Assembly (NCBI GenBank): GCA_023136205.1
Contig: JAGLRQ010000051.1
Coordinates: forward strand, 1 to 28,168
Direction of reading: 5' to 3'
Origin: Candidatus Auribacterota bacterium
GTDB lineage: Bacteria; Auribacterota; UBA6266
DNA length: 28,168 nt
A program made the position numbers and the translations under genes. Shown here one piece after another: positions 16,764 through 21,387 of the stretch. The notes beneath the pieces were generated by a model. That model saw nothing but the letters and a program-made list of their open reading frames with translations, ran no database searches and was not told where the DNA came from. Position 1 is the stretch's first letter. Each line of letters starts with the position of its first letter.

Positions 16764-17641
16764 ATATTGTTCTATCTGACAGAAGAACCTGTCCTTATTG
16801 CGGTTCAGGCAGGTGGACTGTTAATTATAGCTTCAGGTATTATAAAGTGTGTGCCTGCAATTCCTGTTCGGGAGTTTTTCATAACCCGTATTTTTCAGAG
16901 AAAGAAGCGGTGAGATTTTTTTCTGATTCGGCCGGGGTTATCAATCCCAATGCCGAATCATATTATGACAGGAGTTTTGTGGAAAAACATGCCGGACATA
17001 CATTTAAAGTTTTTGACTGGCTGTTGGATTACCTGGAATCTCAAAGTGAAGGCAGAAGATTTTTAGACGTCGGTTTTGGCATGGGGTTTTTACTTGAAAA
17101 GGCGGGAAAAAGAGGATGGGACACTCTGGGTATAGATTTTTCGGATGAATACTATGATTACGCGAAAAACAAGTTGAATCTAAATGTACTAAAGACAGAT
17201 TTAGAAAATTTCGAATCTTTCGATAAAGAATTTGATGTAATTGTAATGTGGGATATAATAGAACATCTTGATGCTCCCGCGGACTCGGTAAAAAAAATAT
17301 ACGCGATGTTAAAGAAAGGCGGCCTTTTGGCGGTTGCTACTCCCAATGAGAAAAGCCTTATTGCCGATATGGCAAAGTTTATTTATAAAATTACTTTTGG
17401 GAAAATAAAAGAACCTTTAAAGTCTGTTTATGTTTTAGAACACCCTCTTTTCTTTGATGCGTTGTCCCTTGGCAGATTACTTGAAAAATGTGGTTTTAAT
17501 GTGATACTTTCTAAAAAGGATGAAACCGACCTGTGCAGGCTTAATTTGCGCGGGTTGAAGAATGTTACCGTGCGCCTTATTTTTAAGATTGCGCGTTTTA
17601 TAGGCAGGCAGAACAGAATAATTATGCTGGCAAGGAAATGA
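16760..17641 (+). CDS. Class I SAM-dependent methyltransferase with N-terminal 4-Cys zinc ribbon
   Basis: CPYCGS...x...CNSCSG at the N-terminus. SAM motif I is FLDVGFGMGFLLE, followed by post-I GIDFS and motif II VIVMWDIIEHL. The GTG start shares GTGA with the upstream stop (16760-16763). Confidence 0.85.
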   Translation: MNIVLSDRRTCPYCGSGRWTVNYSFRYYKVCACNSCSGVFHNPYFSEKEAVRFFSDSAGVINPNAESYYDRSFVEKHAGHTFKVFDWLLDYLESQSEGRRFLDVGFGMGFLLEKAGKRGWDTLGIDFSDEYYDYAKNKLNLNVLKTDLENFESFDKEFDVIVMWDIIEHLDAPADSVKKIYAMLKKGGLLAVATPNEKSLIADMAKFIYKITFGKIKEPLKSVYVLEHPLFFDALSLGRLLEKCGFNVILSKKDETDLCRLNLRGLKNVTVRLIFKIARFIGRQNRIIMLARK

Positions 17642-19149
17642 AGAATAAAAAGATAATTATTTTATTGGTTATATTGCTTGTAGGGTTTTTCGCCAGAATT
17701 GGACCGGTGAACAAACCGCTTCTTGGTAATTTTTCTTCATACCAGGCCGCTACCGCGATTATTGGGCGATTTATTGCCCGGGAAGGGCCTGAGGCTTTGC
17801 TGTATCCAAAAACAAATTTTCTTATATACGGACAACCGGCACTGCATATGCTTTATGTTCCGGGCGCGGCTTTTGCGGGGGGTATGCTCTGGAAAGTATT
17901 TAGTTTCTCTCTTGATTTTTGGGGAAGGTTTCAGGCTTCGTTTTTTACGATGCTTTCAGCTCTTTTGATTTATCTTATTATCCGCGGGTACTACGGTGAA
18001 AAAACAGGGCTTTTAAGCTGTTTTATTTTTAATGTTTTTCCGCTTTCTTTTGTTTATGGACAGAGTTTTATGAATGAGGCCTTCGCGTTTTTCTGTGTTA
18101 TCTGCTCGTTCTGGATATTATCCAATTTTAAGATAACTATGCGGTCTATTCTCTTTTCCGGGATTTTTGCGGCCGCATCGTTTTTGATGAGGATTCATTT
18201 TCTATGTGTTCTTCCCGCGCTGGTTTTCGTTTTGTGGCAGAGATCCGGGAAAAACAAGTTTTCAAATACGGCCGTTTTTATTATAGCCGTTTTTATTCCC
18301 GTTATATCCTGGTATTTACACACCTATAATGTTGCTTCTTCGATGGACAGCAATATCACAAGTATTTTCGCGCAAAAAGGGAAGCACTACGGTTCCTTTC
18401 CGCACCCTTTGCTTTTGAATATTGAGTTTTATAAATATGTAATTGATAGTTTGGGTGGCATATGTTTAAATCCGGCAGGTTTTGTTTTTATGATTATCGG
18501 GTTAGCCATTTTCAGGCCTGAAAATAAAATAGAATGGTTTATAATACTCTGGCTTTTGGGTTCTTTGGGTATAGTAGTACTTCTTCCACAGAAAATTTAT
18601 GACCACAACTTTTATTTTTATCCCATACTTTTTCCCGCGGCTTTGTTGATTTCAAATGTTGCTATTAAAATATTAAAAGGCAAGGGAACCGCGGTTAAGG
18701 TATTTCTTGGAGTCGTTTTTATCGCGATTTCCGCGAGGTATTTTATCAATCCGGCATTTAGTTATCCTGCCGAAATGTCTACGGTTCTTGACGCGGGCCG
18801 CTTTATCAGGGAAAACACTCCTGCCGATGCCAGGATAATCGTTTCTCCTGATGTTTACGATCAGCTTTATTACTGTGACAGGTATGGGTGGACATTCGAC
18901 GTTAAAGATGACAGCAGAAGCGGAAACTATTTTGATGTTGAATGGCTGAAATTGCTTATTAACTGCAGAATTAGAGATGGCGCTGATTTTTATGTGAGCG
19001 CTGATTTAAGGTCAATTAATAATTTGCCGGAATTTGTGGAATATCTGGATAAAAATTATGAAAATATATCTCCTGATGAAAGATTTGTTGTATATGTGCT
19101 GACAGAACCTGCCTGTTCGGCAGGCAGGAAGGAGAAACTGAATGAATAA
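17638..19149 (+). CDS. GT-C fold membrane glycosyltransferase (ArnT-like) no. 2
   Basis: 503-aa polytopic protein with about 11 TM helices and a soluble C-terminal domain, the architecture of ArnT/PMT_2-type enzymes. Sequence motifs are weaker than in no. 1. ATGA start/stop overlap at 17638-17641. The C-terminal tail EPACSAGRKEKLNE is encoded by the 21-nt palindrome. Confidence 0.65.
   Translation: MKNKKIIILLVILLVGFFARIGPVNKPLLGNFSSYQAATAIIGRFIAREGPEALLYPKTNFLIYGQPALHMLYVPGAAFAGGMLWKVFSFSLDFWGRFQASFFTMLSALLIYLIIRGYYGEKTGLLSCFIFNVFPLSFVYGQSFMNEAFAFFCVICSFWILSNFKITMRSILFSGIFAAASFLMRIHFLCVLPALVFVLWQRSGKNKFSNTAVFIIAVFIPVISWYLHTYNVASSMDSNITSIFAQKGKHYGSFPHPLLLNIEFYKYVIDSLGGICLNPAGFVFMIIGLAIFRPENKIEWFIILWLLGSLGIVVLLPQKIYDHNFYFYPILFPAALLISNVAIKILKGKGTAVKVFLGVVFIAISARYFINPAFSYPAEMSTVLDAGRFIRENTPADARIIVSPDVYDQLYYCDRYGWTFDVKDDSRSGNYFDVEWLKLLINCRIRDGADFYVSADLRSINNLPEFVEYLDKNYENISPDERFVVYVLTEPACSAGRKEKLNE
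19108..19128. repeat. GC-rich perfect palindrome CCTGCCTG-TTCGG-CAGGCAGG (copy 1)
   Basis: An 8-bp perfect stem with a 5-nt loop, inside the last codons of the GT-C gene and abutting the RBS AAGGAG (19129-19134) of the next gene. It is strikingly GC-rich against the AT-rich background. Confidence 0.9.
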
Positions 19150-19891
19150 AGCTCTTGTTGTAATTCCAACGTATAATGAAAAGAAAAACATAGTTAAGGT
19201 TTGTGAAAAAATTATGGCTCTTGAAACCTGCCTGTTCCTGCCCGTCCGGCAGGCGGGCGGCAGGCAGGCAGGATTTGATGTTTTGATTGTGGATGACAAT
19301 TCCCCTGATGGGACAGGTGAAATAGCTGATAATCTTTCTTCGTTGCATCCGGGAATACATGTTTTACATAGAAAGGAAAAAGGCGGTATAGGAAGCGCCT
19401 ACATTGAGGGATTTAAATGGGCTCTTGCTAAAGGGTACGATTACTTTTTTGAAATGGATGCTGACCTTTCACACAATCCTGACGACTTGGTTCGTTTGTT
19501 AAATGAGATGGATAGTTGTGATTTGTGCATTGGTTCGAGGTATATAGAGGGAGGCGGCGTTTTAAATTGGCCCATCTGGCGTATGTTGCTCAGCAAATTT
19601 GCCGCGAGATATTACACCAGAATTATTACGCGCATGCCTGTTCATGACGCGACAGCGGGTTTCAAGTGCTTTCGGAGAAGTGTTCTTGAATCTATTAACC
19701 TGGATGAAATACATTCAGAAGGATATTCCTTTCAGATTGAAATGCATTACAGGGCCTGGAAAAAGGGTTTTAAGATAAAGGAAATGCCAATAGTATTTAC
19801 TGACCGTCAGCATGGGCTTTCAAAGATGTCAAAGAAAGTGATATTCGAGGCGATTTTTATGGTCTGGAAAATAAAGTTTACTGTTAAATGA
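19142..19891 (+). CDS. Polyprenol-phosphate hexosyltransferase (GT2; Ppm1/DPM1/ArnC-like)
   Basis: VVIPTYNEKKNI ... VLIVDDNSPDGTGEI ... EMDADLSHNPDDL ... GSRYIEGGG ... DATAGFKCFRR ... GYSFQIEM are the canonical DPM1/Ppm1 motifs. It carries an extra ~15 aa (TCLFLPVRQAGGRQAG) between TYNE and VDD, encoded by the nested palindrome. Confidence 0.9.
   Translation: MNKALVVIPTYNEKKNIVKVCEKIMALETCLFLPVRQAGGRQAGFDVLIVDDNSPDGTGEIADNLSSLHPGIHVLHRKEKGGIGSAYIEGFKWALAKGYDYFFEMDADLSHNPDDLVRLLNEMDSCDLCIGSRYIEGGGVLNWPIWRMLLSKFAARYYTRIITRMPVHDATAGFKCFRRSVLESINLDEIHSEGYSFQIEMHYRAWKKGFKIKEMPIVFTDRQHGLSKMSKKVIFEAIFMVWKIKFTVK
19227..19272. repeat. Nested double copy of the same palindrome (copy 2 with a variant copy inserted at its centre)
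   Basis: The sequence reads CCTGCCTGTT [CCTGCCCGTC CGGCAGGCGGG] CGGCAGGCAGG CAGG. The outer halves equal the two halves of copy 1. The bracketed 21 nt differ from copy 1 at 3 positions. The whole element lies in frame inside the GT2 gene. Confidence 0.85.
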
Positions 19892-21387
19892 AAATCAAGA
19901 AAGCATTTCTTCTTTTTCCACCTTGCCCGATTCCCAAAATGTTTCCCAAAAGGGTTCAAATGCCCCTTGGGATAGCTTACCTTACATCAGTTCTCTTGAG
20001 CAAAAATATCGAAGTTGAAGTTCTTGACAGTCTTATTGAAGGATGGGATGAGGTTGTTGAAATTGATGAGCATAATGTTCAATTCGGGCTTAGGCCTGTT
20101 GAAATAGCTGAAAGGGTAAAAACCTTTTTGCCTGATATTATAGGTATATCCTGCATGTTCAGCATACAGGCAAAGGTTGTTTCTGAGATTGCGAAAGAAA
20201 TTAAAAAGAAACTTCCCTCTGTTAAGATTTTTGTTGGCGGCGCTCATCCTTCTTCAATGCCTGAAGACGCTGTTAGTGATGATAATATAGACTTCGCCAT
20301 TATTGGGGAAGGGGAAGAGACGGTTATTAGTCTTATTAGATGTTTGGGCGAGAACAAATCTCCCAGCGACATTGACGGGATTTGTTATAGGGAAGAAAAT
20401 GGTTCAATCGTTTTGAATCCAAAAACGCGTTATATCGGAAATCTGGATAATCTTTCGTTTCCCAACTGGGATTTTTTGCCGGTAGAAAAGTATTTTAGAT
20501 TGAACAGGCCCCACGGGACTATTACGAGAAACAACAGGATAATTCCTGTAGTTACGTCAAGAGGTTGTCCCGCAAAATGTGTTTTTTGTTCGATTCATCC
20601 AATATGGGGACGGAAATATCGGGCGCGCTCGCCTGAAAATGTTGTTAACGAAATTGAGGAGCTTGTTAAAAAGTACAACGTTCAGGAAATTCATATTGAA
20701 GATGACAATATGACGCTTGATAAAAGAAGAGCGGAGAAAATATGCGATCTTTTAATTGCGCGGCAAATTAAAGTTTCTTTTACTGCTCCGAACGGCCTTG
20801 CGGTCTGGGCTCTGGATGATGGACTTTTAAGAAAGCTCAAAAATGCGGGGTTTTACAGGCTTACGCTCGCGGTCGAGTCGGGAAGCCAAAGCACCTTGAC
20901 TAAGATAATCCATAAGCCCTTGAAGCTCGAAAAAGTTTTTGAGGTTATTGATTCTGCCAATAAAATTGGTTTTGACATAGATGTATTTTTTGTCGTTGGA
21001 TTTCCGGGAGAAACACCTGAAGAGATGCAAAAGACTTTTGACCTTGGGAAAAAGCTTGATGTATCAAGCGTAAAATATTTTGTAGCTACTCCGTATCCGG
21101 GCAGCGAGCTTTTGGATATTGCCCGAAAGGAAAAACTGATACCCGATAATTTTGACCCCAGGGATATAGGCATAAATGCGGTTAAGGGAAACATTACAAC
21201 TGAGTATTTTACACCGGAAGGACTTGAGAAAAAGGTACTCAAAGAAACAATGGCAACGCAGATTGCCCTTCTGAAGAAACATCCGTTAAAATACACATTT
21301 AACATTTTCAGAAATTATGTCCTTAAAGATCCCGGTGCTACGTTATCTTTTGCCTGTAAGACGCTGAAGAGCAAGTTTTTACGGTAA
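19888..21387 (+). CDS. B12-binding (class B) radical SAM enzyme
   Basis: The N-terminal cobalamin-binding Rossmann-like domain has MPLGIAYLTSVLL...PDIIGISCMFS...KIFVGGAHPS. It is followed by the radical SAM cluster motif TSRGCPAKCVFCS (CxxxCxxC, codons 20566-20589). ATGA overlap with the GT2 gene. Confidence 0.88.
   Translation: MKIKKAFLLFPPCPIPKMFPKRVQMPLGIAYLTSVLLSKNIEVEVLDSLIEGWDEVVEIDEHNVQFGLRPVEIAERVKTFLPDIIGISCMFSIQAKVVSEIAKEIKKKLPSVKIFVGGAHPSSMPEDAVSDDNIDFAIIGEGEETVISLIRCLGENKSPSDIDGICYREENGSIVLNPKTRYIGNLDNLSFPNWDFLPVEKYFRLNRPHGTITRNNRIIPVVTSRGCPAKCVFCSIHPIWGRKYRARSPENVVNEIEELVKKYNVQEIHIEDDNMTLDKRRAEKICDLLIARQIKVSFTAPNGLAVWALDDGLLRKLKNAGFYRLTLAVESGSQSTLTKIIHKPLKLEKVFEVIDSANKIGFDIDVFFVVGFPGETPEEMQKTFDLGKKLDVSSVKYFVATPYPGSELLDIARKEKLIPDNFDPRDIGINAVKGNITTEYFTPEGLEKKVLKETMATQIALLKKHPLKYTFNIFRNYVLKDPGATLSFACKTLKSKFLR

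Follow-up and report, generated by a model that had tools for sequence, protein, structure and literature searches.

A 21-nucleotide hairpin sequence shared across bacterial phyla probably spreads as a mobile element that also inserts into its own centre

Introduction

What are two short, G+C-rich hairpin sequences doing inside two adjacent glycosyltransferase genes of an A+T-rich bacterial locus, and why does one of them carry a further copy at its exact centre? The question is raised by contig JAGLRQ010000051.1 of a Candidatus Auribacterota bacterium (assembly GCA_023136205.1), of which the whole stretch of 28,168 nucleotides that was analysed is referred to here as the window. The window has a G+C content of about 39%, and the two sites are its sole G+C-rich hairpins with a stem of at least 7 bp. 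An initial annotation of this DNA proposed either a miniature element, mobile or propagated through hairpins, with its own centre as target, or a selected structural RNA at the junction of the two genes.

Our analysis strongly supports the first of these proposals. Alignment with related genomes shows both sites to be lineage-specific insertions, and they probably reflect the arrival of a widespread 21-nucleotide (nt) hairpin element that is mobilised in trans and enters single-stranded hairpin loops; this element may be one of the smallest mobile DNAs known. The evidence that carries this reading consists of the lineage-specific inserts themselves, the dispersal of the element, 45 metagenome stretches in which it is nested within itself, and pairs of loci seen before and after insertion.

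Results

The first site, copy 1 (19108..19128, forward strand), is a single 21-nt unit, CCTGCCTGTTCGGCAGGCAGG, which lies within a gene for a PMT_2 or GT-C glycosyltransferase (17638..19149, forward strand) and supplies seven codons, PACSAGR, near its C-terminus in the context TE-PACSAGR-KEKLNE* (EPACSAGRKEKLNE*). Its last nucleotide directly abuts AAGGAG (19129..19134, forward strand), the Shine-Dalgarno sequence of the next gene, which encodes a polyprenol-phosphate mannose synthase-like GT2 protein (19142..19891, forward strand); the GT2 start codon is at 19142 and the two genes overlap by 8 nt. The second site lies within the GT2 gene and is a nested pair on the forward strand, in which an outer copy, represented by its left half CCTGCCTGTT (19227..19236) and its right half CGGCAGGCAGG (19258..19268), is split at TT|CG by an inner copy, CCTGCCCGTCCGGCAGGCGGG (19237..19257), that occupies its exact centre and differs from it at three positions. 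This site is translated as ET-CLFLPVRQAGGRQA-GFD (frame segment ETCLFLPVRQAGGRQAGFD). The window therefore holds three copies of the element, one in the GT-C tail and a pair in GT2, and a search allowing up to three mismatches returned exactly two matches in the window and none in 100 shuffles. In all of this the initial annotation stands: the position of copy 1 and its junction with AAGGAG, the parsing of 19227-19272 into two halves, an inner copy and CAGG, the reading frames in both genes, and the absence of any further copy in the window. Its description of the unit as a perfect palindrome does not hold; instead, 8-bp arms flank an asymmetric 5-nt loop, TTCGG, giving a 9-bp stem in RNA when a G-U pair is counted.

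Comparison with relatives shows that both sites are insertions. Two syntenic loci, L199 (a Candidatus Aureabacteria metagenome-assembled genome, MAG) and L200, share the gene order PMT_2, methyltransferase, PMT_2, GT2, (radical SAM), HTH, and DNA alignment shows them to be about 21 nt shorter than the window at the first site and exactly 42 nt shorter at the second. The 42-nt GT2 insert sits between GAAA and CAGG, where both relatives have a 42-column gap, and at this site a target duplication of more than 1 nt is impossible. Because the gap ends before CAGG, that tetranucleotide (19269..19272, forward strand) is native GT2 sequence lying outside the element, the original reading having been ...CTT GAA ACA GGA TTT..., and is not the extra part of the element for which it had been taken. 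In an alignment of 17 GT2 homologues the 14-residue segment is present solely in a strain variant that is 99% identical; it is missing from all 16 more distant orthologues (57-77% identity), which agrees with a lineage-specific origin, the point that the initial annotation had proposed to check by such an alignment. The earlier view that GT2 was lengthened without a break in the frame is correct, with the size revised by the protein alignment from about 15 residues to 14.

An AlphaFold2 model of GT2 has a mean predicted confidence (pLDDT) of 84, and shows the insert (residues ~30-43) as a loop of low confidence, the pLDDT of residues 30-40 falling below 50, between a helix (17-26) and a strand (45-51), at a surface connection of the Rossmann-like fold. 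The nested pair is thus modelled as adding a disordered surface loop, and copy 1 adds seven residues to the variable C-terminal tail of PMT_2.

The possibility that these sequences are assembly artefacts, which the initial annotation had itself raised, was tested. The same sequence is found in three assemblies (an ENA 291-kb scaffold, Logan and NCBI GCA_030639325.1), and the 99%-identical strain variant (L198), which comes from another sample, has both inserts with one substitution within the element, the left half of its outer copy being CCTGCCTGTC, with GTC in place of GTT in the outer loop. An assembly artefact is excluded because the three assemblies and the strain from the second sample agree. 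Template switching readily occurs at palindromes and assemblers may be misled by hairpins, which would favour an explanation by local replication slippage, palindrome expansion or misassembly with no dispersed element at all; this explanation is refuted, however, by not only that agreement but also the three differences between the inner and outer window copies and the presence of identical copies in many genomes, including those of isolates and long-read assemblies. In a separate observation on the strain variant, no gene is called in L198:3750-5570, where the window has a B12-binding radical-SAM gene (19888-21387); the missing call may reflect a frameshift, a pseudogene or a gap in gene calling.

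The syntenic relatives also bear on the second proposal of the initial annotation, that of a locus-specific RNA selected at the GT-C/GT2 junction for translational coupling, RNase processing or attenuation, with the GT2 copy as a second module. Copy 1 abuts the Shine-Dalgarno sequence of GT2 and has a stable computed RNA fold (-15 kcal/mol; -8.8 kcal/mol as DNA), and the 8-nt overlap of the genes is an arrangement in which coupling might be sought. We nevertheless regard such an RNA as very improbable: L199 and L200 keep the overlapping gene pair without the hairpin, the identical 21-mer occurs in unrelated genes, intergenic regions, phyla and phages, and the second site lies within a coding loop with no obvious regulatory logic. 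No Rfam family was matched either, a scan of 18800-19600 with E-values up to 10 having given chance-level matches only (e.g. CRISPR-DR4, E = 1.8). The position of the hairpin 5' of the Shine-Dalgarno sequence looks incidental; at most it could tighten the translational coupling of GT2 to the upstream gene, by making initiation depend more on ribosomes that come from that gene, and the window copies are most likely passengers.

The element has the consensus CCTGCC[C/T]GTCCGGCAGGC[G/A]GG, is 21 nt long, G+C-rich and hairpin-forming, and occurs in two discrete forms: form A (...CCCG...GCGGG), which is CCTGCCCGTCCGGCAGGCGGG, and form B (...CCTG...GCAGG), which is CCTGCCTGTCCGGCAGGCAGG. Among the matches listed there are 127 exact copies, 59 of type A and 56 of type B, with only 12 others, namely eight A/B hybrids and four with a TTCGG loop. 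Copy 1 and the outer GT2 copy are of type B, the TTCGG loop of the window being a rare variant of this form (the canonical loop is TCCGG), and the inner GT2 copy is of type A. Positions 7 and 19 covary without being paired to one another in the hairpin; covariation of this kind suggests that the copies stem from a small number of master sequences and did not evolve independently. In decayed copies the changes are not compensatory. The computed stem is 8 bp in type B and 6 bp in type A, with folding energies as DNA of -8.8 kcal/mol for the former and -5.8 kcal/mol for the latter. When A is nested in B the two fold as one long hairpin (-16.9 kcal/mol as DNA, -30.7 kcal/mol as RNA), because the CGGG tail of A and the outer CGG pair with CTGCCCG of A.

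Two side observations concern sequences that resemble the element. A 20-nt, perfectly symmetric form that lacks the loop T, CCTGCC[TC]GCCGGCAGGC[AG]GG, occurs 14 times in the loci analysed (e.g. at L027:186, L043:2790, and L151:247 and 9126), in some cases within long open reading frames (ORFs), where a frame shift would be expected. Elsewhere in the window there are seven 8-mers that resemble half-sites (CCTGCCTG, CAGGCAGG three times, CCGGCAGG twice and CCTGCCGG; the positions of the seven are 1272, 1625, 2754, 9071, 13833, 16806 and 18472), and for CCTGCCNG 1.5 matches are expected across the whole window; these 8-mers may be relics of old copies, or mere k-mer bias.

A search for further copies, which the initial annotation had called for, showed that the element is widely dispersed. 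Scanning one genome per GTDB species with the query CCTGCCYGTYCGGCAGGCRGG gave matches in at least 120 stretches, to which viral and metagenome stretches are added below. Counted from the record titles of the matches listed, about 70 stretches belong to Bacteroidota (with Ignavibacteria and Chlorobi), 17 to the candidate phyla radiation (CPR, Patescibacteria), five to Omnitrophota, four to Nitrospirota and three to Planctomycetota, with a few each in other groups, including one Woesearchaeote; no cyanobacterium is among the matches listed in this genome scan. Cultured carriers in the same list include Aequorivita vladivostokensis, Flavobacterium soyangense, and members of Flavivirga, Aureibaculum, Psychroserpens, Maribacter and Mucilaginibacter (each as sp.). 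Most matched genomes have a G+C content of 30-47%, and by our own arithmetic, with 16 G/C and 5 A/T positions, well under one chance match is expected in all A+T-rich genomes together.

Phages are also among the carriers, with 29 stretches of the IMG/VR viral collection containing the element. Several prophage contigs of one termite-gut MAG hold about one copy per kb, all of type A and in both orientations, within the tail-sheath gene and other large ORFs, and these contigs also encode terminases, portal and capsid proteins; in one of them (L151) 10 of 13 copies are sequence-perfect. Related phages with a G+C content of 66-69% have copies at differing sites. This richness in copies suggests that prophages are one possible vehicle of spread. 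Searching annotated phages and plasmids by blastn with the 42-nt composite gave chance-level matches only, in G+C-rich replicons, and one of these matches, MT839420, was rejected as unrelated coding sequence. A further observation comes from the single-stranded DNA microvirus Microvirus mar1 (L202, MZ089747.1), in which an intergenic hairpin 3' of the replication-initiator gene (2492-2535) holds a 16-nt type-A core, CTGCCCGTCCGGCAGG, a match that may be due to chance, about one being expected in the database by our own arithmetic.

Comparison of filled and empty sites shows that insertion is clean. At least seven such pairs, including the two window sites, show a net gain of 21 nt per unit with no target duplication. 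Among related phages of 88-90% identity, L130 carries a copy at GCCG^TCGGC that is missing from L132 and L150, and in the reverse case L132 carries one at CCGA^CCGGGG that L130 lacks; three more pairs are provided by prophage paralogues in L148 and L151. Flanking direct repeats around 231 units have the lengths seen at random, save for nine units with repeats of 7-8 nt (0.03 expected), all nine of which are embedded in tandem heptamer or octamer arrays. Target-site duplication is accordingly rejected, since the flanking repeats match chance except in these arrays. The bias in the flanks is weak, with A or C before the insertion point and C or T after it, and A almost never after it. Two familiar categories do not fit, a classical miniature inverted-repeat transposable element (MITE), with terminal inverted repeats, a fixed duplication and a length of ~50-500 bp, and a DNA uptake sequence (DUS) or uptake signal sequence (USS), since the copies are 21 nt long, show no duplication in at least seven pairs, and lengthen genes by 21 nt relative to orthologues instead of arising by substitution.

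The repeat arrays deserve description in their own right. The heptamers and octamers around copies include CATAACT, CGTTGCC, CAAATCAC and CACGTCAC, with the same 7-8 nt on both sides, and array-embedded copies are found at L011:1283, at L163:1789 and 10854, and in L173, L195, L105, L153 and L162; in L195 the whole array block apparently lies within a pheT-like ORF, as judged by eye from the flanking translation. Tandem arrays of the element itself occur in L009, L031, L115 and L163, the last with a 28-nt period of element plus heptamer. At 21 nt the element is as long as three heptamers. Other G+C-rich mini-hairpins adjoin copies in unrelated genomes (L045, L077, L133 and L038; L017, L112 and L123), such as TCTCCCC(N4)GGGGAGA, and CCGCC(N3)GGCGG on both sides; in L099 (two copies) the copy lies in the GAAA loop of CCCGC-GAAA-GCGGG. 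These neighbours suggest that a wider set of mini-hairpin repeats exists.

The discrete forms and the arrays are what might be expected if an enzyme system brought its own template and wrote the element from it, by a reverse transcriptase with a non-coding RNA or by other templated synthesis; any genome acquiring such a system would receive the same 21 nt, tandem and nested arrays included. Two alleles with very few intermediates recur across phyla, tandem arrays include the 28-nt-period array, and no protein is encoded in cis. We consider templated writing improbable all the same; it is pure inference, the surroundings of the copies showed neither a reverse transcriptase nor a non-coding RNA, and the mixed-type nests described next are equally explained by ordinary copy-and-paste.

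The element strongly favours the centre of its own copies as a target. In 45 metagenome stretches the exact 42-nt nested form is present, with two left halves followed by two right halves; the flanks differ in nearly all of these, and a few represent one locus in related contigs (e.g. L171/L174 and L170/L187). Triple nests are also present in the metagenome set, and the genome and viral sets add about six nested arrangements, in some of which the outer halves are degenerate. The point of nested insertion is GTC|CGG, with an ambiguity of one C. Classified as outer/inner, 46 nests comprise 27 B/A, 10 B/B, 8 A/A and 1 A/B, so that the outer copy is of type B in 37/46 and A in 9/46, and the inner copy is of type A in 35/46 and B in 11/46; the window GT2 insert is a B/A composite, the commonest nested form. 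Nesting is not local duplication, because the inner copy is usually of another type than the outer one. The usual target, B, is the more stable DNA hairpin (-8.8 vs -5.8 kcal/mol for A).

Successive stages of nesting can be seen in orthologous genes. In one gene L060 has a single B where L169, L171 and L174 have A in B at the same codon, with flanks ~70-77% identical, and the site is empty in ~115 other homologues, some at 80-82% identity; in a second orthologous pair, L043 has a single A and L182 an A inside A. The outer B copy is 21/21 identical in the three species represented by L060, L169 and L171 although the flanks diverge by ~20-30%, which hints at homogenisation or constraint, with ascertainment bias from exact matching as a further possible cause.

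This conservation raises the alternative that the sequence is a motif useful to its hosts genome-wide, whether protein-binding, nucleoid-organising or uptake-signal-like, that spread by selection or biased recombination and not by transposition. The identity of the three orthologous copies, the presence in one genome of about one copy per kb, a density comparable with those of DUS and USS, the perfect sequence of most copies (10/13 in L151) and the recurrence of one sequence across phyla are all features that such a motif would have. It remains an unlikely explanation: motifs of the uptake type accrue by substitution, whereas these copies are insertions of 21 nt, a copy nested at the centre breaks up the outer one, which is then no longer a simple motif, no receptor is known that Bacteroidota, CPR, archaea and phages have in common, exact-match searching makes the sequence look more conserved than it is, and the changes in decayed copies are non-compensatory.

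The element occurs both in genes and in spacers, with a mild excess in spacers; at loci below 50% G+C, 68% of copies lie in stop-free frames of at least 150 codons, compared with 82% for random positions. As it is seven codons long and, when read from its sequence, free of stops in all six frames, every insertion keeps the host ORF open, and for the same reason being in frame is not in itself evidence of selection. The peptides encoded are PPAGRAG (26 copies), RLPDGQ (19), PA[CR][SP]AG[RG] (12), PACRTGR (8), LPVRQAG (4) and C[PL][SF]GR.. (2). Cysteine-encoding frames are under-represented among copies in ORFs, and this skewed usage fits purifying selection on the encoded peptide. Copies in ORFs are presumably read through as short loops rich in Pro, Ala, Gly and Arg.

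The neighbourhood of the copies yielded no gene that travels with them. All-against-all BLAST of 2,595 ORFs from element loci (windows of up to 8 kb) found no recurrent neighbour, and a transposase encoded in cis was rejected after Pfam scans of 40 ORFs in the densest contigs gave phage structural and packaging genes only. The window itself is a cell-envelope glycan locus, with genes for a lipid A acyltransferase, a GT9, a carbamoyltransferase, GT4 proteins, two PMT_2 GT-C proteins, a methyltransferase, GT2, the radical-SAM protein and a pathway of nonulosonic-acid type (NeuB, CMP-transferase-like, DegT aminotransferase); its best-named relatives are Candidatus Aureabacteria and Omnitrophota.

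Discussion

Our sequence comparisons, coupled with the nested and paired loci, suggest a model for the movement of the element. Being non-coding, it would be copied by a factor acting in trans. Insertion would take place into single-stranded DNA exposed at the tips of extruded hairpins, for example at replication forks; we infer this from the lack of duplication, from the loop position of the target, and from the fact that B, whose hairpin is the more stable, is the copy most often entered. The leading candidate, still a hypothetical one, is a structure-specific enzyme of the HUH/Y1 type that cuts and joins DNA; transposases of this type (IS200/IS605, REP/RAYT) are the best-known enzymes to act on DNA hairpins in this manner and leave no duplication. 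Selection would then retain only those copies whose peptide falls in tolerant surface loops or at gene ends. A bolder proposal, which we advance tentatively, is that the 21-nt hairpin is a complete mobile unit, the smallest known, that a conserved structure-specific enzyme or a template-carrying system inserts into single-stranded hairpin loops, its own included, and that spreads horizontally, possibly borne by phages, among Bacteroidota, CPR, Omnitrophota, other phyla and archaea, whose proteins would gain 7-residue loops.

Several points weigh against a mobile hairpin. All copies were found through exact-match searches, which bias estimates of conservation upward, and for a 21-mer to be identical in many phyla it must either spread horizontally with some frequency or be under strong constraint. 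No mobilising enzyme was found near copies in the windows of up to 8 kb. The flank composition contains no fixed target oligonucleotide of the Y1-transposase kind, and only a minority of ordinary targets lie in the loops of other hairpins (4% by a strict count vs 1% in controls), a modest enrichment, so that a position inside an older flanking hairpin is a minority pattern and not, as a first impression had it, the rule. Type A alone makes a poor hairpin, and the covarying, non-pairing positions 7 and 19 are not explained by a simple hairpin model. Mobilisation in trans into single-stranded loops is still, in our assessment, the probable origin of the window sites, and under it the additions to the GT-C tail and the GT2 loop are parasitic and not functional motifs of these enzymes.

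If this reading is true, the lower size limit of autonomously recognisable mobile DNA falls to about two helical turns, and distant bacterial phyla, an archaeon and phages have one 21-mer in common without a single base of difference. Hairpins would then be copied into hairpin loops either by a new enzyme of wide distribution or through some general feature of replication. By its nature the element also generates loop insertions of 7 and 14 residues in proteins, which could be very numerous, and it would be both an overlooked source of annotation and alignment artefacts in MAG proteins and a marker of horizontal contact between lineages. The preference for its own centre offers a simple trap with which to catch the insertion reaction experimentally. 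No description of the element, whose reach extends far beyond the window, came up in literature searches by exact sequence, by keywords and by the six peptides that it encodes.

A comparison with known systems highlights both shared and distinct features. The SDR4-6 small dispersed repeats (SDRs) of filamentous cyanobacteria are reportedly 21-27 nt long, non-coding and identical across many taxa; they are said to be inserted in other repeats and in each other and to be tied to tandem heptamers, by a mechanism that is unknown. The present element is like them in its 21-nt length, its identity across taxa, its self-nesting and its occurrence in heptamer or octamer arrays (9/231 units), and it differs in being found in Bacteroidota, CPR, Omnitrophota, other groups and phages, mostly within protein-coding genes.

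The Rickettsia palindromic elements, with which the initial annotation drew a comparison, are reportedly ~100-150 bp long, inserted in-frame in ORFs, confined to Rickettsia and not self-nesting. The analogy of behaviour is sound, as the present element is also palindromic, selfish and in-frame in genes, where it adds surface segments. Membership of that family is not supported: the element is 21 nt long, has another sequence, inhabits many phyla and nests in itself.

Elements of the IS200/IS605 and PATE kind move by single-stranded DNA 'peel and paste', have two subterminal hairpins and a length of at least 100 nt, and insert 3' of a fixed 4-5-nt target. The absence of a target-site duplication, the DNA hairpin and the plausibility of single-stranded DNA as substrate are common ground; here, in contrast, there is no fixed target but only a bias at the A/C|C/T junction.

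Fungal mitochondrial G+C clusters, double-hairpin elements and byps are ~30-60 nt or longer, with targets of AG or TAG type and an enzymology that is unknown. Mitochondrial byps are skipped by the ribosome. The present element shares with the G+C clusters the character of G+C-rich hairpin islands in A+T-rich genomes, in coding regions as elsewhere, both single and arrayed (on these elements see also PMC8811140). It is unlike byps in being stop-free and a multiple of three nucleotides, so that it is presumably translated, and unlike G+C clusters in not being organellar.

Repetitive extragenic palindromic (REP) sequences and REPINs are short palindromes mobilised by REP-associated tyrosine transposases (RAYTs) of the Y1 HUH type (PMC3116915; PMC3733652), and some REP families are found within other palindromes and, in frame, within ORFs (Di Nocera et al. 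2013, PMC3733652). The present element is likewise an imperfect palindrome within the 20-40 nt range, is non-coding and presumably depends on an enzyme in trans. A REP is recognised by the tetranucleotide GTAG or CGTC at one end of the unit (PMC3733652), whereas this element begins with CCTG and ends with RGG, has neither tetranucleotide at its termini, and carries CGTC only in the loop of type A (TGTC in B). It is also a single unit and not a doublet, is mostly intragenic (68% in ORFs of at least 150 codons), keeps the same sequence across phyla where REPs, predominantly extragenic, are specific to a species or genus, and has no RAYT gene seen near its copies. The closest known kinds are thus the cyanobacterial small dispersed repeats, the REPs that lie inside ORFs and the mitochondrial G+C clusters.

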